Below, one piece after another: positions 8,352 through 19,775 of a stretch of 24,546 bases of DNA. The number at the start of each line of letters is the position of its first letter. Positions within the stretch are counted from its first letter, which is position 1. Where the stretch lies: IMG/VR virus record IMGVR_UViG_2872164251_000005; one strand, 5' to 3'. The stretch comes from a virus (taxonomy: Duplodnaviria > Heunggongvirae > Uroviricota > Caudoviricetes). The notes beneath the pieces are model-generated. The model saw nothing but the letters and a program-made list of their open reading frames with translations, searched no databases and was not told the DNA's origin. The translations under genes and the position numbers were made by a program.

Positions 8352-8747
8352 ACCGGCACACACAAATCCGTCAGAGCGTGCTGGCACGCCTTCGGGAACA
8401 GTGTGGAGACAGCGCCACGTTTTTTGACGGGCTTCCGGCATTTATTGATGCGCAAACTGCCTGCCGTGGCGGTGTGGCTGAGTGATGCTCAGTACACCGG
8501 AAAAATGACGGATGGAGATGACTGGCAGGCTGTTCTGTATATTGCCGTCTTCATCCGGGCACAGGCACCGGATTCAGAGCTGGATATGTGGATGGAGAGC
8601 ACCATTTTCCCGGCCCTGAATGATGTACCGGCACTTTCCGGACTCATCGACACCCTGAACCCACTCGGTTTTAACTATCAACGTGATAATGAGATGGCTA
8701 CCTGGGCGATGGCGGAAATCACGTACCAGATCACGTACACGAATTAA
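8348..8747 (+). pseudogene. U: Lambda gpU-like tail terminator protein with a +1-nt frameshift near codon 36
   Basis: The frame from ATG 8348 gives MNRHTQIRQSVLARLREQCGDSATFFDGLPAFIDAQ and then stops at 8485. The rest of U (LPAVAVWLSDAQYTG...ITYQITYTN) is in the track ORF 8403-8747, shifted by one frame. The join lies in CAAA at 8453-8456; one fewer A gives an uninterrupted U of lambda-like length. Confidence 0.75.
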
Positions 8748-8757
8748 GGAGGTGGTA

Positions 8758-9498
8758 ATGACCACACCAAATCCACTGGCAAAAACGAAAGGTGCGGGAA
8801 CGACGTTATGGATGTATACCGGCAACGGCGACGCATTTGCGAACCCTTTGTCGGACACTGACTGGCTGCGTCTTGCGATGGTGAAGGATCTGCAACCTGG
8901 CGAGATGACCGCTGATGCAGAAGATGACACTTATCTCGATGATGAAGATGCAGACTGGAAAACGACAACCCAGGGGCAGAAATCCGTCGGTGATACTTCG
9001 GCGACGCTGGCCTGGCGTCCGGGTGACAGCGGGCAGAAAAAACTGGTTCAGTTGTTCGATTCCGGTGAAGTCTGCGCGTTTCGTATCAAATACCCCAACG
9101 GTACGGTTGATGTTTTCCGTGGCTGGCTGAGTTCACTGGGTAAAACCATTACCTCAAAAGAGGTGATGACCCGTACTGTAAAAATCAGCGGTGTGGGGCG
9201 TCCGTATCTGGCAGAGGAGGGCGCTGAAACCGTGGGTGTTACCGGACTGACGGTGGCACCGGCATCTGTCAGTGTCAAAGCGGGAGCAACCACCACACTG
9301 ACCTTTACAGTAAAACCTGACGGGGCCAGTGACAAAGCGATCAGTGTGCATTCGTCAGATCCTCAGACTGCTTCGGTGCCCCTGAGCGGGCTTGTGGCCA
9401 CGGTGAAAGGCGTGCAGCAGGGCAGTGTCAGCATCGTGGGCATGACCTCTGACGGAGAGTTTGTGGCAGTGGCTGCGGTGACCGTCAGCGCACCATAA
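8758..9498 (+). CDS. V: Lambda gpV-like major tail tube protein with C-terminal Ig-like domain
   Basis: 246 aa from the ATG at 8758 (RBS GGAGGTGG); the track ORF has a spurious 5' extension. N-terminus MTTPNPLAKTKGAGTTLWMY; C-terminal region TVAPASVSVKAGATTTLTFTVKP is Ig-like. Confidence 0.9.
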   Translation: MTTPNPLAKTKGAGTTLWMYTGNGDAFANPLSDTDWLRLAMVKDLQPGEMTADAEDDTYLDDEDADWKTTTQGQKSVGDTSATLAWRPGDSGQKKLVQLFDSGEVCAFRIKYPNGTVDVFRGWLSSLGKTITSKEVMTRTVKISGVGRPYLAEEGAETVGVTGLTVAPASVSVKAGATTTLTFTVKPDGASDKAISVHSSDPQTASVPLSGLVATVKGVQQGSVSIVGMTSDGEFVAVAAVTVSAP

Positions 9499-9517
9499 CA
9501 GGACGATACTCATCATT

Positions 9518-9540
9518 GCCCCGGTTATCCGGGGCTTTTT
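9518..9540 (+). terminator. Hairpin plus T5 just downstream of V (attenuator/terminator-like)
   Basis: Stem GCCCCGG / CCGGGGC (7 bp), loop TTAT, then CTTTTT. Confidence 0.45.
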
Positions 9541-9556
9541 GCATCCGGAGAACATG

Positions 9557-9943
9557 ATGTTTCTGAAACAGGATACGTTTAATTATGAAAAACAGTCCGT
9601 GGTGCTCAGTGAGCTGTCCGGGCTGCAGAGAATTGAATATCTGACGTTTGTTCAGCAGCGAAAGGCAAAGTTTGATGCACAGGAGGGAGAACTGCCGGAG
9701 GCTGAACGACAGATTGCTTTTCTGCGTATGGGAATGGATATCAATGCCTGGCTGGTTTCCCGCTCACTGTGGAATGCTGAGCAGTCTCAGGATGTTGAGA
9801 CGCTTTGCGCATCCATTATGACAACATGGTCGTATGATGCGCTGGGCGCGGGGGCGGAGAGGGTTCTGTCGCTGAGCGGTATGGGGACCATTGAGAATGC
9901 CGGGGATGATGATCATGAGGCGCTGACGCCGGAAAAGTCCTGA
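9557..9943 (+). CDS. G: Lambda gpG-like tail assembly chaperone
   Basis: Starts MFLKQDTF (lambda G starts MFLK); GGAG 6 nt upstream of ATG 9557. LSELSGLQRIEYL resembles the lambda G N-terminus. Confidence 0.85.
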   Translation: MFLKQDTFNYEKQSVVLSELSGLQRIEYLTFVQQRKAKFDAQEGELPEAERQIAFLRMGMDINAWLVSRSLWNAEQSQDVETLCASIMTTWSYDALGAGAERVLSLSGMGTIENAGDDDHEALTPEKS

Positions 9944-10281
9944 CGCGGGAAATGCAGTTTGTCATGCGGCTTGCCCGGGAGTTCCGGCGGGCAGACTGGC
10001 GGCAGATGCTGTCGGATATGTCGGCCACTGAGCTTGGTGAGTGGGGCGATTATTTCCGGATGCAGAGCTTCAGTGATGTGTGGATGGATGCGCAGTTTGC
10101 CTCGCTGAAGGCATTGATCGTGAGAATGGTGTCCGGCAGCAGCGATGCTGCGGTGGCTGATTTCAGCCTTTTACCGGAAGAGAACGGGATACCGGAGCGA
10201 ACGGACGAAGAACTGATGCATCTTGGGGAAGGTATTTCCGGAGGTGTGCGTTATGGACCAGATAGCCAACCTGGTCATTGA
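9557..10281 (+). CDS. T: gpG-T fusion chaperone made by -1 programmed ribosomal frameshift near the G 3' end
   Basis: The T frame is -1 relative to G, is open from 9919 and runs to 10281. The only window for the shift is 9919-9943, which contains G-GAA-AAG at 9931-9937, a non-canonical slippery-like heptamer. Confidence 0.6.
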
Positions 10282-13192
10282 TTTGGGGATTGATGCGGCA
10301 GAGTTTAAAAATGAAATTCCCCGTATCAAAAACCTTCTGAATGGTGCAGCCAGCGATGCAGAACGGTCTTCTGCCCGTATGCAGCGTTTTATGGAGCGTC
10401 AGACTCAGGCGGCCCGGCAGACAATGCAGGCGGCTTCTTCGGCTGCAACAGCAGCATCAGCCCATGCGCAGACGGTGGAGAAGAATGCACGGGCTCATGA
10501 ACGCATGGCCCGTGAGGTGGAACAAACCCGTCTGCGCGTGGATGCCCTGAATCAGAAAATGCGCGAGGAACAGGCGCAGGCCAGGGCACTGGCGGAGGCG
10601 CAGGATAAAGCGGCTGCCGCCTTTTATCGCCAGATTGACAGTGTGAAACAGGCCGGTGCGGGGCTTCAGGAATTACAGCGTATTCAGCAGCAGATCCGAC
10701 AGGCCAGAAACAGTGGCGGGGTTGGTCAGCAGGATTATCTGGCGCTGATTTCGGAGATCACGGCGAAAACCCGTGCCCTGACGCAGGCAGAGGAACAGGC
10801 CACCCGGCAGAAAGCGGCGTTTATCCGCCAGCTTAAAGAGCAGGCAACCCGCCAGAATCTGTCGTCTTCTGAGTTGCTTCGCGCCAGGGCGGCTCAGCTG
10901 GGGGTGTTAATCAGTCAGATGGCGCGCGGCAATTTTGGTGCGCTGAGGGGATCCGGGATAACGCTGGCTAACCGTGCCGGATGGACAGGCGCACTGATGT
11001 CGCCGAAAGGCATGATGACTGGCGGCGTTATTGGCGGACTTGTCGCGGCGGTCCTGGGTCTGGGTAAAGCCTGGCATGACGGCGGAAGGAGGGCGAGGAA
11101 TTTAACCGTCAGCTGGCGCTGACGGGACATTATGCCGGTGTCACTGTCGGGCAGTTGTGGAAACTCAGCCGGGCCATATCCGGGAATGGTATCACGCAAC
11201 ATGCGGCAGCCGGTGCGCTGGCACAGGTGGTGGGCAGTGGGGCATTTCATGGAAACGATATTGGTATGGTGGCGAAAGCTGCCGCACAGATGGAGCGATC
11301 GGTTGGCCAGTCGGTCAGCGATACCATAAATCAGTTTAAGCGGCTGAAGGATGATCCTGTAAATGCCGCGAAGGCGCTGGACAATGCGCTGCATTTTTTG
11401 ACTGCCACTCAGCTTGAGCAGATACGCGTCCTTGGGGAGCAGGGGCGGTCCAGTGATGCGGCCCGGATCGCCATGTCTGCGCTGGCAGAGGAAACCGGTA
11501 AACGCACATCTGATATTGATAATAATCTCAATGCGCTGGGTAGTACGCTGCAAACCTTGTCTGACTGGTGGAAGCAGTTCTGGGATGCGGCCATGAATAT
11601 TGGTCGTGAAGACTCGCTGGATGCGCAGATTGATGCGTTACAGGAAAAAATTCAGCGCGCGAAAAAATATCCGTGGACAAACGCCTCCACACAGGTGGAG
11701 TACGATCAGCAGCGTCTTAACGATCTTCAGGAGAAAAAACGCCGGAAGGATTTGCAGGATGCAAAAGCGCAGGCAGAACGGAATTACCAGGAGCAACAGA
11801 AACGCCGGAATGCTGAAAATGCCGCGCTGAACCGGATGAATGAAACGGAAGCTGCACGACATCAGCGGGAAATTGCGCGTATTAATGCCATGCAGTACGC
11901 CGACCAGGCTGTCAGGGATGCGGCGATACAGCGTGAAAATGAACGTTACGAAAAAGCCATTAAGAAAAATACACGGGCAACCCGTAATGATGAGGCCACC
12001 CGGTTATTGCTGCAGTACAGTCAGCAGCAGGCACAGGTGGAAGGGCAGATTGCTGCTGCCAGACAGTCAGCAGGCATTGCCACTGAAAGGATGACTGAAG
12101 CGCATAAACAGCTTCTGGCCCTGCAGCAGCGCATCAGCGACCTGGACGGGAAAAAGCTGACGGCAGATGAAAAGAGTGTGCTGGCCCGTAAGAATGAGCT
12201 GATTCAGGCGCTGACGCTGCTGGATGTGAAACAGCAGGAGCTGCAGAAACAGACAGCGCTTAACGACCTGAGAAAAAAAACGGTTCAGCTGACCAGCCAG
12301 CTGGCAGACAAAGAACGTGCACTGCGTGAGCAGCACAATCTGGATATTGCCACTGCAGGTATGGGGGATAAGCAGCGGCAGCGCTACCAGGCACAGTTGC
12401 GCATCCGGCAGGAATACCGGCAACAGTTGCAACAGCTTGAGAATGACAGTCGCCAGAAAGGCACTTACGGGACGGAGGACTACCGGAGGGCTGAGGAGGT
12501 GCTGAAGGGGAGCCTGAAGCGACAACTGAATGAAAACAAACGCTACTGGCAGGAACTGGAAGTGGCGCAGGGCGACTGGAAAAACGGTGCCATGCGGGCG
12601 TTTCAGAATTTTACGGCGGATGCGGATAATGCGGCGGGAACGGCAGAACAGATGTTTACAGTGGCATTCAGCAGTGCCGGTAATGCACTGGCGACATTCT
12701 GTACCACCGGTAAGCTGAATTTTAAATCCTTCACCTCTTCCCTGTTGTCAGATATGGCCAGAATTATGGCACAGATGGCCATGATGCAGGCGGTAAAGGG
12801 CGTCGGTTCTTTATTCGGCTTCACGACTAATGCTGATGGCGGTGTTTACCAGTCTGCTGATTTGAGTCGCTACAGTGGCACGGTGGTTAACCGTCCGACG
12901 TTTTTTGCTTTTGCAAAAGGCGCGGGTGTGATGGGGGAAGCGGGACCTGAAGCCATTCTGCCACTGCGTCGCGGTGCTGATGGTAAGCTGGGGGGTTGTG
13001 GCGGATACTGGTGGTTCAGGCATGGTGATGTTTGCCCCGCAGTACAACATTGAGATCAATAACGACGGCACGAACGGGCAGATAGGTCCGGCTGCCCTGA
13101 AGGTGGTTTATGACCTCGGGAAAAAAGCGGCCGCGGACTTTATGCAACAGCAGGCCCGTGATGGTGGCCGGTTAAGTGGAGCATACCGGTAA
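10253..13192 (+). pseudogene. H: Lambda gpH-like tail tape measure protein, interrupted by two 1-nt frameshifts
   Basis: Three frames carry consecutive H segments: 10253-11122 (MDQIANLVIDLGIDAAEF...AWHDGG), 11086-13053 (EEFNRQLALTG...RRGADGKLG) and 12993-13192 (VVADTG...NNDGTNGQIGPAALKVVYDL, matching the lambda H C-terminus). Shift 1 is a 1-nt loss at GGAAGG 11084-11089; shift 2 is an extra G in G6 at 12990-12995. Confidence 0.8.
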
Positions 13193-13521
13193 TGGAGACG
13201 TTTCACTGGAAAGTGCGCCCGGATATGAATGTGGTATCAGAGCCGAAAGTGGTGACAGTGAAGCTGGGCGATGGTTATGAACAGCGTCGTGCGGCGGGAC
13301 TGAATAACCAGTTGTCGACTTACAGCGTGACGATACGTGTTCGTAAAGGTGAACACCCATCTTTAAAAGCCTTTCTGGAACGGCACGGTGGCGTCCGCGC
13401 ATTTCAGTGGACGCCACCTTATGACTGGAAACTGATCAGGGAGGTTTGTCGTAAATGGTCGGCAAGCGTGGGGGCGTTATGGGTGACTGTAACGGCCGAT
13501 TTTGAACAGGTGGTGAACTGA
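13192..13521 (+). CDS. M: Lambda gpM-like tail tip assembly protein
   Basis: 109 aa, same length as lambda M; FGDGY..R, HGG and WTPPY.W motifs shared; C-terminus FEQVVN. Start overlaps the H stop as TAATG. Confidence 0.9.
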   Translation: METFHWKVRPDMNVVSEPKVVTVKLGDGYEQRRAAGLNNQLSTYSVTIRVRKGEHPSLKAFLERHGGVRAFQWTPPYDWKLIREVCRKWSASVGALWVTVTADFEQVVN

Positions 13522-14219
13522 TGCAGGATATCCGGCAGGAAACACTGAATGAATGCACCCGTGCGGAGCAGTCAGCCCGGGTGGAGCTCTGGGAAATCGA
13601 TCTGACAGAGGTCGGTGGTGAGCGTTATTTTTTCTGTAATGAGCAGAACGAAAAAGGTGAGCCGGTCACCTGGCAGGGGCGGCAGTATCAGGCATACCCC
13701 ATTCAGGGGGCGGGGTTTGAACTGAACGGCAGGGGCTGTGCTGCCCGTCCGACACTGACGGTCTCTAACCTGCACGGCATGGTCACCGGGATGGCGGAAG
13801 ATCTGCAGAGTCTGGTCGGCGGAACGGTGGTCCGGCGTAAGGTTTACGACCGTTTTCTGGATGCGGTGAACTTCGTCAACGGAAACAGCGACGCCGATCC
13901 GGAACAGGAGGTGATCAGCCGCTGGCGCATCGAGCAGTGCAGCGAACTGAGCGCGGTCAGTGCCTCTTTTGTGCTGGCCACACCAACGGAGACGGATGGC
14001 GCGGTTTTCCCGGGGCGTATCATGCTGGCGAATACCTGTATGTGGACTTACCGTTCTGATGAGTGTGGTTACACGGGCAGGGCAGTGGCTGACGAGTTCG
14101 ACAAACCAACGACGGATATCCGGAAGGACAAATGCAGCAAGTGTATGCGCGGGTGTGAGTTGCGCAACAATACCGGTAATTTCGGCGGTTTCCTTTCCAT
14201 CAATAAACTTTCTCAGTAA
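13521..14219 (+). CDS. L: Lambda gpL-like tail tip protein (C-terminal cysteine cluster)
   Basis: 232 aa, same length as lambda L; C-terminal CGYTG...CSKCMRGCELRNN cysteine motif. Start overlaps the M stop as TGATG. Confidence 0.9.
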   Translation: MQDIRQETLNECTRAEQSARVELWEIDLTEVGGERYFFCNEQNEKGEPVTWQGRQYQAYPIQGAGFELNGRGCAARPTLTVSNLHGMVTGMAEDLQSLVGGTVVRRKVYDRFLDAVNFVNGNSDADPEQEVISRWRIEQCSELSAVSASFVLATPTETDGAVFPGRIMLANTCMWTYRSDECGYTGRAVADEFDKPTTDIRKDKCSKCMRGCELRNNTGNFGGFLSINKLSQ

Positions 14220-14223
14220 ATCC

Positions 14224-14967
14224 ATGACACAGACAGAATCAGCGATTCTGGCGCACGCCCGGCGATGTGCGCCAGCGGAGTCGTGTGGATTCGTGGTGAG
14301 AACGCCGGAGGGAGACAGGTATCTTCCCAGCGAGAATATCTCCGGTGAGCCGGAGGAACGGTTCCGGATGGCTCCGGAGGACTGGCTGCGGGCACAAATG
14401 CAGGGTGAGATTGTGGCACTGGTCCACAGTCATCCCGGTGGTCTGCCCTGGCTGAGTGAGGCTGACCGGCGGCTGCAGGTGCAGAGTGATTTGCCGTGGT
14501 GGCTGGTCTGCCGGGGGGCGATTCACAAGTTCCGCTGTGTGCCGCATCTCACCGGGCGGCGCTTTGAGCACGGGGTGACGGACTGTTACACGCTGTTCCG
14601 GGATGCTTATCATCTGGCGGGGATTGAGATGCCGGATTTTCACCGCGGGGATGACTGGTGGCGTCACGGTCAGAATCTCTATCTGGATAATCTGGAGGCC
14701 ACAGGGCTGTATCAGGTGCCGTTGTCATCAGCACAACCGGGCGATGTGCTGCTGTGCTGTTTTGGTTCATCGGTGCCGAATCATGCCGCCATTTACTGCG
14801 GCGATGGTGAGCTGCTGCACCATATTCCTGAACAACTGAGTAAACGAGAGAGGTATACCGACAAATGGCAGCGACGCACACACTCCCTCTGGCGTCACCG
14901 GGAATGGCACGCATCTGCCTTTACGGGGATTTGCAACGATTTGGCCGCCGCATCGACCTTCGTGTGA
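14224..14967 (+). CDS. K: Lambda gpK-like tail tip protein with JAMM/MPN and NlpC/P60 motifs
   Basis: 247 aa from ATG 14224 (the track ORF 13960-14967 has a 5' extension overlapping L). HSHPGG...SEAD is a JAMM-type motif; DCYTLF and a downstream His are NlpC/P60-like. The 3' end overlaps I by about 100 nt. Confidence 0.85.
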   Translation: MTQTESAILAHARRCAPAESCGFVVRTPEGDRYLPSENISGEPEERFRMAPEDWLRAQMQGEIVALVHSHPGGLPWLSEADRRLQVQSDLPWWLVCRGAIHKFRCVPHLTGRRFEHGVTDCYTLFRDAYHLAGIEMPDFHRGDDWWRHGQNLYLDNLEATGLYQVPLSSAQPGDVLLCCFGSSVPNHAAIYCGDGELLHHIPEQLSKRERYTDKWQRRTHSLWRHREWHASAFTGICNDLAAASTFV

Positions 14968-15505
14968 AAACGGGGGCTGAAGCCATCCGCGCACTGGCCA
15001 CACAGCTCCCGGCGTTTCGTCAGAAACTGAGTGACGGCTGGTATCAGGTGCGCATTGCCGGGCGTGATGCAGGTGAAACCGAATTGTCTGCCCGTCTTAA
15101 TGAGCCGCTGGCAAATGGTGCAGTGATCCACATAGTACCGCGTCTGGTGGGAGCTAAAAGTGGCGGTGTGTTTCAGGCGGTGCTGGGGGCAGCTGTTATG
15201 GCGGTTGCTATATGGATGCCGGGGTAGGAATTATGGCGAGTAATCTGCTGTTTTCTCTCGGTGCCAGTATGACGCTTGGCGGTGTTGCACAGATGCTGGC
15301 ACCGAAAGCCAGAACTCCCCGTACACAGACAACGGATAACGGCAAACAGAACACCTGTTTCTCCTCACTGGATAACATGGTTGCCCAGGGCAATGTTCTG
15401 CCTGTTCTGTACGGTGAAATGCGCGTGGGGTCGCGGGTGGTATCTCAGGAGATCAGCACGGCAGACGAAGGGGATGGTGGTCAGGTTGTGGTGATTGGTC
15501 GCTGA
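14865..15505 (+). pseudogene. I: Lambda gpI-like tail tip assembly protein, interrupted by a 1-nt deletion in a G-run
   Basis: N-terminal part MAATHTLPLASPGMARICLYGDLQRFGRRIDLRVKTG matches lambda I and stops at 15227. The C-terminal part (LFSLGASM..GGVAQMLAPKARTPR.QTTDNGKQNT.FSSLDNMVAQGNVLPVLYGEMRVGSRVVSQEISTADEGDGGQVVVIGR) is in the -1 frame in track ORF 15212-15505. One added G at GGGG 15220-15223 restores a continuous protein. Confidence 0.8.
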
Positions 15506-15523
15506 TGCAAAATGTTTCATGTG

Positions 15524-15545
15524 AAACCGCCTGCGGGCGGTTTTG
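15524..15545 (+). terminator. Hairpin plus T-run between I and J (terminator/attenuator-like)
   Basis: Stem AAACCGCC / GGCGGTTT (8 bp), loop TGCG, followed by TTTTGTCGTTT. Confidence 0.45.
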
Positions 15546-15565
15546 TCGTTTATGGAGCGTGAGGA

Positions 15566-18500
15566 ATGGGTAAAGGCAGCAGTAAGGGGCATACCCCGCG
15601 CGAAGCGAAGGACAACCTGAAATCCACGCAGTTGCTGAGTGTGATTGATGCCATCAGCGAAGGGCCGGTTGACGGTCCGGTGGATGGATTAAAAAGCGTG
15701 CTGCTGAACGGTACGCCGGTCCTGGACAGCGAGGGGAAGACAAACTTTTCCGGTGTTACGGTGGTGTTCCGCGCCGGCGAGCAGGAGCAGACACCGCCGG
15801 AGGGGTTTGAATCTTCCGGCTCAGAGACTGTGCTGGGTACGGAAGTGAAATACGACACGCCGATCACCCGGACCATCACGTCGGCAAACATTGATCGTCT
15901 GCGCCTGACCTTCGGTGTGCAGGCACTGGTGGAAACCACCTCAAAGGGGGACCGGAATCCGTCGGAAGTCCGCCTGCTGGTTCAGATACAGCGTAACGGT
16001 GGCTGGGTGACGGAAAAAGACATCACCATTAAGGGCAAAACCACTTCGCAGTATCTGGCCTCGGTGGTGGTGGGTAACCTGCCGCCGCGCCCGTTTAATA
16101 TCCGGATGCGCAGGATGACACCGGACAGCACCACAGACCAGCTGCAGAACAAAACGCTCTGGTCGTCGTACACCGAAATCATCGATGTGAAACAGTGCTA
16201 CCCGAACACGGCGCTGGTCGGCGTGCAGGTGGATTCAGAGCAGTTCGGTAACCAGCAGGTGAGTCGCAATTATCATCTTCGCGGGCGCATTCTGCAGGTG
16301 CCGTCGAACTATAACCCGCAGACGCGGCAATACAGCGGTATCTGGGACGGAACGCTTAAGCCAGCATACAGCAACAACATGGCCTGGTGTCTGTGGGACA
16401 TGCTCACTCATCCGCGCTACGGCATGGGGAAACGTCTTGGTGCGGCAGATGTGGACAAATGGGCGCTGTATGTCATCGGCCAGTACTGCGACCAGTCAGT
16501 GCCGGACGGATTTGGCGGCACGGAGCCGCGCATCACCTGTAACGCTTACCTGACCACACAGCGTAAGGCGTGGGATGTTCTCAGTGATTTCTGCTCGGCG
16601 ATGCGCTGTATGCCGGTATGGAACGGGCAGACGCTGACGTTCGTGCAGGACCGACCGTCGGATAAAGTGTGGACCTATAACCGCAGTAATGTGGTGATGC
16701 CGGATGATGGCGCGCCGTTCCGCTACAGCTTCAGCGCCCTGAAGGACCGCCATAATGTCGTTGAGGTGAACTGGATTGATCCGGACAACGGTCATGAGAC
16801 GGCGACAGAGCTTGTGGAGGACACGCAGGCCATTGTCCGTTACGGTCGTAACGTCACGAAGATGGATGCCTTTGGCTGTACCAGCCGGGGACAGGCGCAC
16901 CGCGCCGGGCTGTGGCTGATTAAAACGGAACTGCTGGAAACGCAGACCGTGGACTTCAGCGTCGGCGCAGAAGGGCTTCGCCATGTACCGGGTGATGTCA
17001 TTGAAATCTGCGATGATGATTATGCCGGTATCAGCACCGGTGGTCGCGTACTGGCGGTGAACAGCCAGACCCGGACGCTGACGCTCGACCGTGAAATCAC
17101 GCTGCCGTCCTCCGGTACCACGCTGATAAGCCTGGTTGACGGAAATGGCAATCCGGTCAGCGTGGAGGTTCAGTCCGTCACCGACGGCGTGAAGGTGAAA
17201 GTGAGCCGGGTTCCTGACGGCGTTGCAGAATACAGCGTGTGGGGGCTGAAGCTGCCGACGCTGCGCCAGCGCCTGTTCCGCTGCGTGAGTATCCGTGAGA
17301 ACGACGACGGCACGTATGCCATCACCGCCGTGCAGCATGTGCCGGAAAAAGAGGCCATCGTGGATAACGGGGCACACTTTGACGGTGACCGGCGCGGCAC
17401 GGTGAATGGTGTCACGCCGCCAGCGGTGCAGCATCTGACCGCCGAAGTCACCGCAGACAGCGGGGAATATCAGGTGCTGGAGCGATGGGACACGCCGAAG
17501 GTGGTGAAGGGTGTGAGCTTCCTGCTTCGCCTGACCGTGGCAGCGGACGACGGCAGTGAGCGGCTGGTCAGCACAGGCAGGACGACGGAAACCACATACC
17601 GCTTCAGGCAGCTGGCGCTGGGGAATTACAGTCTGACAGTCCGGGCGGTAAATGCCCGGGGGCAGCAGGGCGATCCGGCGTCGGTATCGTTCCGGATTGC
17701 GGCACCGGCAGCGCCTGTCACTATTGAACTGATACCGGGGTATTTTCAGATAACGGTGGTCCCGAAACTGGCTGTATATGACCCGACGGTGCAGTTTGAG
17801 TTCTGGTTTTCGGAAAAGCGGATTGCGGATATCAGGCAGGTTGAAACCAGCGCCCGCTATCTTGGCACGGCGCTGTACTGGATAGCCGCCAGTATCAATA
17901 TCAGGCCGGGCCATGATTATTATTTTTACGTTCGCAGTGTGAACACCGTTGGCAAATCGGCATTTGTGGAGGCCGTCGGTCGGGCGAGCGATTATGCGGA
18001 AGGTTATCTGAGTTTTTATAAAGGGTTGATCAATAAAACGCATCTCGGCAAGGAGTTGTGGACGCAGATTGATAACGGTCAGCTTGCGCCGGACCTGACT
18101 GAAATCAGGACGTCCATTACGAATGTCAGCAATGAAATCACGCAAACCGTCAATAAAACACTGGAAAATCAGAGTGCTGCAATCCAGCAGATACAGAAAG
18201 TTCAGGTTGATACAAATAATAACCTGAACAGCATGTGGGCTGTGAAGCTGCAACAGATGAAGGACGGACGCCTTTATATTGCGGGTATCGGTGCCGGTAT
18301 TGAGAATACGCCAGCAGGAATGCAGAGTCAGGTGCTGCTGGCGGCAGACAGGATTGCGATGATTAATCCTGCGAATGGCAACACAAAGCCGATGTTTGTT
18401 GGTCAGGGCGATCAGATATTCATGAACGACGTGTTCCTGAAACGCCTGACGGCTCCGACCATTACCAGCGGCGGTAATCCTCCGGCATTTTCCCTGACAC

Positions 18501-19045
18501 CTGGCGGACGGCTGACGGCGAAAAATGCCGATATCAGCGGTAACGTGAACGCGAACTCCGGGACGCTCAACAACGTCACGACTAATAAGAACTGTCGGGT
18601 TCTGGGAAAATTGTCCGCGAACCAGATTGAAGGCGATCTCGTTAAAACAGTGGGCAAACCTTTCCCACGGGACTCCCGGGCACCGGAGAGGTGGCCATCA
18701 GGGACCATTACCGTCAGGGTTTATGACGATCAGCCGTTTGATCGGCAAATTGTTATTCCCGCGGTGGCGTTTCGCGGTGCTAAACATGAGCGGAAGAATA
18801 ACAATATTTATTCGTCATGCCGCCTGATAGTGAAGAAAAACGGTGCTGAAATTTATAACCGAACGACCCTGGATAATACGCTGATATATACGGGTGTTAT
18901 TGATATGCCTGCCGGTCACGGTCACATGACGCTGGAGTTTTCTGTATCGGCATGGCTGGTAAATGGCTGGTATCCCACAGCAAGTATCAGCGATTTGCTG
19001 GTTGTTGTGATGAAGAAAGCCACTGCAGGCATCACGATTAGCTGA
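15566..19045 (+). CDS. J: Lambda gpJ-like central tail fibre / host specificity protein, with a C-terminal domain that differs from lambda
   Basis: 1159 aa. N-terminal two-thirds closely matches lambda J ([24 protein letters not shown]...). The last 150-250 residues do not match the lambda J receptor-binding end as remembered. Confidence 0.95.
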
Positions 19046-19064
19046 ATTTTATAACCCAGATACG

Positions 19065-19088
19065 GGCACCAGAAATGGTGCCTTTTTT
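19065..19088 (+). terminator. Intrinsic terminator after J
   Basis: Stem GGCACC / GGTGCC, loop AGAAAT, followed by TTTTTT. Confidence 0.7.
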
Positions 19089-19112
19089 ATTGCAGAAAAG
19101 CGAGAGGTAATT

Positions 19113-19712
19113 ATGCGTAAAGTTTGTGCAGCCATTTTGTCCGCAGCCATCTGTCTGGCTGTATCCGGTGCGCCTGCATGGGCGTCTGAACATCAGTCCA
19201 CGCTGAGCGCCGGGTATCTTCAGCCCCATACTGATATGCCAGGCAGCGATGACCTGAAGGGCATTAACGTGAAATACCGTTATGAGTTTACGGACACGCT
19301 GGGGCTGGTGACGTCATTCAGCTATGCCAACGCTGAAGATGAGCAAAAAACGCATTACAGCGATACCCGCTGGCATGAGGATTCCGTGCGTAACCGCTGG
19401 TTCAGCGTGATGGCGGGGCCGTCTGTGCGCGTGAATGAATGGTTCAGCGCGTATGCGATGGCGGGCGTGGCTTACAGCCGTGTGTCGACCTTCTCCGGGG
19501 ATTATCTCCGCGTAACTGACAACAAGGGGAAAACGCACGATGTGCTGACCGGGAGTGATGACAACCGCCACAGCAACACGTCTCTGGCGTGGGGGGCTGG
19601 TGTGCAGTTTAACCCGACCGAATCCGTGGCCATTGACCTTGCTTATGAAGGTTCCGGCAGTGGCGACTGGCGCACTGACGGTTTCATTGTGGGTGTCGGT
19701 TATAAGTTCTGA
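19113..19712 (+). CDS. lom: Lom / Ail-family outer membrane protein (prophage cargo gene)
   Basis: 199 aa with a signal-peptide-like N-terminus. LKGINVKYRYE, SVMAGP, AYAMAGVA and C-terminal AYEGSGSGDWRTDGFIVGVGYKF match lambda Lom as remembered. Confidence 0.9.
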   Translation: MRKVCAAILSAAICLAVSGAPAWASEHQSTLSAGYLQPHTDMPGSDDLKGINVKYRYEFTDTLGLVTSFSYANAEDEQKTHYSDTRWHEDSVRNRWFSVMAGPSVRVNEWFSAYAMAGVAYSRVSTFSGDYLRVTDNKGKTHDVLTGSDDNRHSNTSLAWGAGVQFNPTESVAIDLAYEGSGSGDWRTDGFIVGVGYKF

Positions 19713-19738
19713 TTAGCCAGGTAACACAGTGTTATGAC

Positions 19739-19764
19739 AGCCCGCTGGTTCAGGCGGGCTTTTT
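19739..19764 (+). terminator. Intrinsic terminator after lom
   Basis: Stem AGCCCGC / GCGGGCT, loop TGGTTCAG, followed by TTTT. Confidence 0.65.
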
Positions 19765-19775
19765 GTGGGGTGAAT

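Follow-up and report, generated by a model that had tools for sequence, protein, structure and literature searches.

A probable programmed −1 frameshift site, G-GAA-AAG, in the lambda-type tail chaperone genes of a defective prophage

Introduction

Between the tail tube and tape measure genes of the prophage sequence IMGVR_UViG_2872164251_000005 there are two short overlapping reading frames, which raises the question of whether the second is expressed as an extension of the first by a −1 ribosomal frameshift and, if so, at which codons. The window, meaning the whole stretch of DNA that was analysed, is 24,546 nucleotides long. In lambda the corresponding genes, G and T, are reportedly joined by a frameshift at G-GGA-AAG, as described by Levin, Hendrix and Casjens in 1993 and by Xu, Hendrix and Duda in 2004 and 2013. 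The −1 shift at this heptamer gives gpG and gpG-T in a ratio of about 30:1 (review PMC5009743). The heptamer in the window is G-GAA-AAG rather than that of lambda. The analysis presented here indicates that positions 9931-9937 are very probably the programmed −1 frameshift site of a lambda-type tail chaperone pair, working by tandem slippage and without a conserved stimulator, and that both the site and the heptamer are of a kind that is already known.

The G and T genes and their frames

The features of the region around the two genes are as follows.

8758..9498, + strand: major tail tube gene, homologue of lambda V (PF16461 Phage_TTP_12, 4e-67, plus Big_2); upstream boundary of G/T
9518..9535, + strand: GC hairpin with a T-run, terminator-like, from a pattern scan; between V and G
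9557..9943, + strand: gene G, tail assembly chaperone of 128 aa (PF06894 Phage_TAC_2, 1e-39), with its stop TGA at 9941-9943
9916..9918, + strand: TGA in the −1 frame, read from the sequence; 5' limit of the shift window
9919-10281, + strand: T frame, −1 relative to G, open for 120 codons
9931..9937, + strand: candidate slippery heptamer G-GAA-AAG, P-site GAA to GGA and A-site AAG to AAA
9937..10281, + strand: T-frame part of the predicted G-T fusion (PF06223 Phage_tail_T, 5e-15, minor tail protein T)
10253..13053, + strand: tape measure gene, homologue of lambda H, disrupted (Pfam TMP_2, TMP_4 and Tape_meas_lam_C; PF06791, PF09718); downstream boundary of G/T

The gene identities are clear from these matches, those to PF06894 and PF06223 both exceeding the curated cut-offs, and from the neighbouring genes. 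The gene upstream of G, which has AAGGAGG ahead of its ATG at 8758, encodes a tail tube protein of the lambda type that includes an Ig-like domain, and it is collinear with the annotated tail tube CDS of Escherichia coli CFSAN029787, and the presence of two short ORFs between the tail tube and tape measure genes is the gene order of lambda. G starts at ATG 9557, with a further in-frame ATG at 9554 and the sequence GGAG at 9547-9550. The hairpin between V and G at 9518-9535 has homologues that are annotated as rho-independent terminators in the records of phages mEp460 and N15, and it could reduce transcription of G, T and H relative to V.

The frames of the two genes overlap by 25 nt, GGCGCTGACGCCGGAAAAGTCCTGA (9919-9943). 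The preliminary description of this sequence had confined the shift to this interval, and it is indeed bounded by the −1-frame TGA at 9916-9918 on one side and by the G stop at 9941-9943 on the other. The G frame ends ACG CCG GAA AAG TCC TGA, and the same stretch in the −1 frame reads GCC GGA AAA GTC CTG. When every 0-frame codon of the overlap was scanned for Z_ZZN re-pairing, GGAAAAG at 9931-9937 was the sole match, so that the earlier proposal of this heptamer as the only candidate stands, there being no other slip-competent codon. The predicted fusion is join(9557..9937,9937..10281), which would be a protein of 241 aa.

The heptamer does not have the canonical form X-XXY-YYZ, in which positions 1-3 are identical, as these positions are G-G-A, and the −1 P-site codon GGA gives tRNA(Glu) a G.U pair at the second position. 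Positions 4-6 are identical, as in Z_ZZN, and the A-AAG at 9934-9937 allows cognate re-pairing in the A site. There are 4 copies of the string GGAAAAG in the window, where shuffled sequences would lead one to expect 3.5; it is the frame, the position, and the conservation of the heptamer that are above chance, and not the string itself.

Previously annotated sites and comparison with other systems

Records of related phages already contain both the G/G-T frameshift and the identical heptamer. The GenBank record of N15 annotates GGAAAAG at 10027..10033 as "slippery sequence for -1 translational frameshift", and the record of phage LLS has a joined chaperone CDS together with a "minus-one programmed translational frameshift site GGAAAAG". 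T is described as part of a frameshift product in the Gifsy-1 record, and PRFect lists a "twofour" motif, read here as XXYYYY, among the −1 slippery patterns of annotated chaperone frameshifts. Genes 14/15 of N15 and 11/12 of LLS resemble those in the window in their Pfam families, in gene order, and in having G-GAA-AAG at the homologous Glu-Lys codons. N15 and the window differ in that their G proteins are only about 32% identical, in the codon preceding the heptamer (GCG, Ala, in N15; CCG, Pro, in the window), and in the distance from the heptamer to the G stop, which is 15 nt in N15 and 3 nt in the window.

Lambda shares with the window the homologous genes and position, the invariant Lys AAG, the absence of any conserved structure downstream, and a −1 shift at a low level, which in the window is predicted. 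In lambda the frames overlap by 64 nt, as against 25 nt in the window. In the P site, the Gly codon GGA of lambda becomes GGG on slippage, which changes the wobble pair only, whereas the Glu codon GAA in the window becomes GGA, with G.U at the second position; going from lambda to the window, one replacement of A-U by G.U is thus relocated from the wobble to the middle position. The A-AAA-AAG of E. coli dnaX and the orfAB sites of the IS3 family resemble the window in using slippage of tRNA(Lys) from AAG to AAA, but these have strong stimulators (an upstream Shine-Dalgarno sequence and a stem-loop or pseudoknot) and shift at levels of tens of percent, whereas no conserved stimulator was found for the window. 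The G-GUU-UUU of cardioviruses and arteriviruses has, like the window, the form X-XYY-YYZ and P-site re-pairing with a second-position mismatch, although these sites belong to eukaryotic RNA viruses and work with protein trans-activators and other tRNAs.

Distribution of the heptamer

The G/T segment of 743 nt is 95.6-96.7% identical to that of the isolated phages mEp460, cdtI, Tritos, HannyBb, Ayreon, and phi458, and it is present at at least 95% identity in 1844 of 5426 complete E. coli genomes. Among 80 close IMG/VR relatives the overlap varies at one base, which is outside the heptamer. In mEp460, which is viable and forms plaques, the 25-nt overlap is identical to that of the window, which lends indirect support to a working fusion.

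In more distant relatives the heptamer is found at the same aligned Glu-Lys codons, both in Gifsy-1, Gifsy-2, and Fels-1 (G proteins 52-57% identical to that of the window) and in mEp043 and N15 (32-34%), while the homologous site is G-GGA-AAG in lambda and A-AAA-AAG in VT1-Sakai. The survey, made with six G queries and one family-wide peptide pattern, covered 440 loci, and the G/T geometry was called in 408 of these. The 147 distinct G proteins formed 16 clusters at 70% identity, and the Lys codon of the heptamer aligns in all 147. G-GAA-AAG is the heptamer in 13 of the 16 clusters, at about 30-55% G identity to the window protein, the others being G-GGA-AAG in two, those of lambda and of a prophage in E. 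albertii, and A-AAA-AAG in one; these counts carry a sampling bias, as 4 of the 6 query proteins had GGAAAAG. The least biased count comes from a scan of species-representative genomes with the family-wide pattern, which gave about 12 lineages with G-GAA-AAG, about 4 with G-GGA-AAG, and 1 with A-GAA-AAG. Of the loci outside the first filter, those in Buttiauxella and Atlantibacter carry G-GAA-AAG; in Serratia and Symbiopectobacterium the heptamer is G-GGA-AAG and the G protein ends much as in the window, with TPGKS-stop.

The Glu form of the heptamer is thus the norm of this family and the lambda form the minority, and the single transition that switches GAA and GGA has occurred more than once. 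That the two have interchanged repeatedly suggests that any departure of the G:GT ratio from that of lambda, which the preliminary description had put forward as a possibility, is tolerated and that both heptamers are workable. Describing G-GAA-AAG as non-canonical, as the preliminary description did, is misleading for what is the majority heptamer (13/16 clusters) and one that is annotated in N15 and LLS. It had also been considered that the site might be a decayed lambda-type site, GGGAAAG having become GGAAAAG in a dying prophage; this was ruled out, as the heptamer is shared with viable phages and is found in many genera.

Rare variants keep the A-AAG without the position 1 base or the P-site match. 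These are A-GAA-AAG, in L205 and in Morganella morganii (L246), where TAA follows immediately, and G-GCA-AAG, in L199. The three loci may be natural tests of whether the tetramer is sufficient, or they may be sequences of dead prophages.

Lambda-type G/T genes were also encountered on short, low-coverage contigs of unrelated assemblies (L262-L274), including those of Kitasatospora, Neobacillus, Oceanobacillus, Shewanella, Pseudomonas, Leeuwenhoekiella, and others, with an identical G protein in ten of them (L262-L271). These sequences are most likely contamination of the sequencing libraries with lambda DNA.

Conservation of codons at the heptamer

The heptamer is conserved at synonymous sites as well as in position. 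Backgrounds were taken from the G and T genes of representative lineages, in which Lys is encoded by AAG in 39% of cases and Glu by GAA in 53%, and four-fold third bases are G in 39%. Against these, the three codons concerned give the following probabilities, which assume independent lineages and, the lineages being related, are upper bounds on significance.

Lys codon AAG: 22/22 lineages; background 0.39; probability 1e-9
Glu codon GAA: all 17 Glu lineages; background 0.53; probability about 2e-5 (extended to 17 lineages from the 3.4e-5 computed for 16)
Preceding four-fold codon (CCG, GCG, CTG, ACG) ending in G: 19/21 lineages; background 0.39; binomial probability 1.6e-6

The preference for AAG over AAA at the Lys codon agrees with the rule for E. 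coli, in which no other tetramer shifts nearly as readily as A_AAG (PMC4066793). Position 1 of the heptamer is four-fold degenerate in G and is untranslated in the T frame after the slip. Conservation of G at a position that is silent in the one frame and not read in the other is best explained by re-pairing of the P-site tRNA.

Location of the shift

In 17 lineages the T frame is conserved straight from the AAA of the heptamer, as K-[V/A]-[L/F]-x-x-E-[L/M]-x-F-...-L-A-R-E-F-x-R-x-D-W-R. The T frame 5' of the heptamer is unconserved, and it is closed 9-39 nt upstream. That the conservation begins with this Lys, with none 5' of the heptamer, locates the shift at the heptamer.

The same pattern bears on whether T might be made as a separate protein from ATG 9952, for instance by re-initiation after the G stop and with no frameshift at all. 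This ATG is only 8 nt past the stop, and a T CDS of 109 aa is called from it by PGAP and in the mEp460 record. However, ATG 9952 is unconserved, the first T-frame ATG lying anywhere from +6 to +52 codons in different lineages and within the conserved domain, and the conserved residues K-V/A-L/F-x-x-E are encoded 5' of it. It has no usable Shine-Dalgarno sequence (GGGA at 1-nt spacing), and separate initiation would leave the synonymous conservation of the heptamer unexplained. An independent start of T at ATG 9952 is accordingly very improbable and was dropped, because the ATG is unconserved and conserved T-frame residues precede it. In lambda the fusion is reportedly the only known form of T, according to Levin et al. 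in 1993. The other way in which −1-frame product might arise at this location, slippage of RNA polymerase on the A-run to give a −1-frame mRNA, has nothing further in its favour than the four A's of the heptamer and can be given hardly any weight. Appreciable slippage by bacterial RNA polymerase requires about 7-9 A's or more, for which a run of four is far too short, and conservation of AAG rather than AAA suits slippage of tRNA(Lys) instead.

In the two records checked, RefSeq (PGAP) and mEp460, T is annotated as a standalone CDS with no ribosomal-slippage join. This CDS lies at 9952-10281 in the window and at 14414-14743 in L003.

Mechanism of the slip

The programmed shift would proceed as follows. 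The majority of ribosomes would read G through to the TGA at 9941, giving the 128-aa chaperone. A small fraction, with the P-site tRNA(Glu) paired to GAA and the A-site tRNA(Lys) paired to AAG, would slip by −1, after which they would read the T frame to 10281 to give the 241-aa G-T fusion (...TPEK-VLTRE...). In moving from AAG to AAA, tRNA(Lys) would re-pair perfectly with a cognate codon, and the slip would be favoured by the weak pairing of the single E. coli tRNA(Lys) with AAG. For tRNA(Glu), anticodon 3'-CUU-5', the move from GAA to GGA would keep two Watson-Crick pairs, the first and third, around a central G.U. The heptamer would be active without a conserved RNA stimulator, like that of lambda, and by analogy with the lambda-type G/G-T class the fusion is predicted to be made at a few percent of G and to be needed for tail assembly.

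The P site is the weaker part of this scheme. The preliminary description had expected weaker P-site re-pairing than at G-GGA-AAG, and this is borne out both by the second-position mismatch and by the reconstituted E. coli system of Peng et al. 2019, in which G-GAA-AAG was less slippery than G-GGA-AAG (PMC6924986). In the same system AUG-GAA-AAG gave mainly the 0-frame product at all EF-G concentrations, and with EF-G tip mutants G-GAA-AAG shared the tendency of G-GGA-AAG toward frameshifting, to a smaller extent (PMC6924986). G-GAA-AAG cannot be scored with the thermodynamic frameshift model of Bock et al. 2019, which lacks a term for the second position. In a full-text literature search for GGAAAAG with phage or frameshift, the only return was the kinetic paper from the Rodnina laboratory, the table of Xu et al. 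2004 lying outside the coverage, and no measured frameshift product for G-GAA-AAG in a phage context was found in the literature examined.

It might be proposed that tRNA(Lys) slips alone, with no role for the upstream G-GA, so that the functional motif is the tetramer A-AAG (9934-9937); the slip would then take place in the A site, or else in the P site before TCC is decoded. This is a live alternative for the mechanism, although not for the location of the site, and a possible one that is nevertheless doubtful. The second-position mismatch disfavours re-pairing by tRNA(Glu), and G-GAA-AAG has itself been used as a control in which "only one tRNA can slip" (PMC6924986). In smFRET on G-GGA-AAG the deacylated tRNA departs fast while the peptidyl-tRNA(Lys) fluctuates (PMC9307594), the variants A-GAA-AAG and G-GCA-AAG exist in nature, and slippage by tRNA(Lys) only would yield the identical product (...EK-V...). 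However, the G at position 1 in 19/21 lineages, against a background of 0.39, is left unexplained if the P-site tRNA is irrelevant, and A_AAG by itself is scarcely active in vivo, the bare tetramer with no stimulator giving 0.147% against a background of 0.112% (PMC4066793). Tandem slippage is the best-supported mechanism.

Search for stimulators

The dnaX and IS3-type sites have a stem-loop or pseudoknot about 5-9 nt downstream. RNAalifold, applied to the stretch from the heptamer to +80 in 23 lineages, gave −1.55 kcal/mol with 0 compensatory pairs, and single folds of 17 lineages had no common structure downstream of the heptamer. A conserved stem-loop or pseudoknot of this type was therefore rejected, there being neither shared structure nor covariation. 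The 100-nt fold of the window's own sequence from the heptamer has z = −2.07 relative to shuffled sequences, and in it the heptamer itself is paired. There is no Rfam family near the site, the only matches in the window being four tRNAs.

A hairpin, GGCGCGUG...CGCGCC, is present about 33 nt downstream of the heptamer in the region coding LAREFGRPDWRAML (at about 1338-1375 in L089 and about 1150-1186 in L001). It is predicted to be strong and occurs in T genes of the N15, mEp043, and lambda types, and is absent from the clade of the window. It is too distant from the shift site to be a classical stimulator.

Upstream of the heptamer there is one candidate stimulator in the window.

9917..9920, + strand: Shine-Dalgarno-like GAGG, 10 nt upstream of the heptamer, with an anti-Shine-Dalgarno duplex of −5.6 kcal/mol

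That this GAGG boosts a weak heptamer, in the manner of the internal Shine-Dalgarno sequence of dnaX, is improbable. Its spacing of 10 nt is that at which the dnaX sequence acts, and Shine-Dalgarno-like 4-mers are present 9-12 nt upstream in 8/15 lineages with G-GAA-AAG and in 0/7 with other heptamers, against a background of 5.5% per equivalent window; however, the spacing window and the set of motifs were picked post hoc, after the data had been viewed. The GAGG also overlaps a conserved Glu/Asp codon, and of 11 lineages with GAG there are 6 with the flanking G, approximately as base composition would predict. Seven lineages have G-GAA-AAG and no such motif, among them N15, mEp043, and five others. 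Once the conserved Glu codon is conditioned on, the enrichment is gone, which would suggest that the GAGG is probably incidental.

State of the prophage

The prophage that carries the site is defective, which the preliminary description had missed. An intact relative is present in E. coli CFSAN029787, and the two are collinear only at 5692-6585 and 8196-22893. The genes for terminase, portal, protease, and capsid are absent from the window. The features outside the tail region that bear on this are the following.

1-1023, − strand: integrase
1024-2286 and 6596-7859: IS3-family copies of 1264 bp each, 99.8% identical, each with an orfA of 100 aa (HTH_Tnp_1) and an orfB (rve)
2379-3074: antiterminator Q
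4263-5459, − strand: IS110-family transposase, inserted
5692-6585: surviving fragment of the FI/FII head-tail joining region

Near 11082 the tape measure gene has lost one nucleotide, a C of GGCCGG, relative to its intact CFSAN029787 homologue; this deletion splits its frame into ORFs at 10223-11122 and 11155-13053, and about 102 nt are missing near 10900. To judge from this gene content, the prophage cannot make particles. The shift site is then most likely a preserved relic, and the ratio of its products is probably without consequence in this genome. Whether the site is simply idle here, a neutral relic in a decaying prophage that by chance has not mutated, is about evenly balanced: the loss of the genes from terminase to capsid, the insertion of two IS3-family copies and an IS110-family transposase, and the tape measure deletion would all support this, but no damage is seen in G, T, or the heptamer, which are identical to their counterparts in viable phages. 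An idle site would, moreover, address the present use of the sequence and not its nature, which is very probably that of a frameshift site.

Several other observations were made on the same stretch. The second IS3-family copy interrupts a Z-like tail gene. Each of the two copies has a canonical −1 run of its own, A-AAA-AAA-G, at 1339-1346 and about 6911-6918, with the orfB frame open across the end of orfA, and so has the classic orfAB frameshift arrangement. In the first copy the orfB ORF runs to 2388, past the end of the element, giving 320 aa as against 272 aa in the second. Four tRNA genes lie downstream of Q at 3251-3561, with anticodons CAT (called Met, possibly Ile2), Arg-TCT, Thr-TGT, and Gly-TCC. 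The last, tRNA-Gly(UCC), reads GGA, which is the −1-frame codon of the heptamer, but no link to the mechanism is apparent, since it is tRNA(Glu) that occupies the P site.

At the prophage end there is an intact gene for an IpaH-type T3SS effector E3 ligase of 583 aa with LRR_TTSS and NEL domains (21946-23697, − strand), the homologue of which is annotated as frameshifted in E. coli CFSAN029787. There are 99% matches in Shigella flexneri. Together with the IS content and the ipaH gene, these suggest that the host was a Shigella or an enteroinvasive E. coli.

Implications for the lambda-like tail chaperones

Because 1844 of the 5426 complete E. coli genomes contain a prophage of this type, the G-T fusion probably goes without annotation in many records, and annotation pipelines restricted to X-XXY-YYZ would miss the majority form of the site.

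More tentatively, G-GAA-AAG may be the default natural shift site of the lambda-like tail chaperones, at which the bacterial P site accommodates tRNA(Glu) with a U.G pair at the second position, giving a G:GT ratio like that of lambda either with no stimulator or with a clade-specific booster resembling a Shine-Dalgarno sequence; this is a speculative reading and would more probably prove wrong than right. tRNA(Glu), like tRNA(Lys), carries mnm5s2U34. Were this to be true, the textbook heptamer of lambda would be the exception, and the family would be a natural allelic series, G-GAA-AAG, G-GGA-AAG, A-AAA-AAG, and A-GAA-AAG, for the tuning of low-level frameshifting in vivo through the P site. 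The family compares heptamers that differ only in their P-site pairing, and it could be used to calibrate the cost in vivo of a second-position G.U, which is a term absent from current thermodynamic models of frameshifting.
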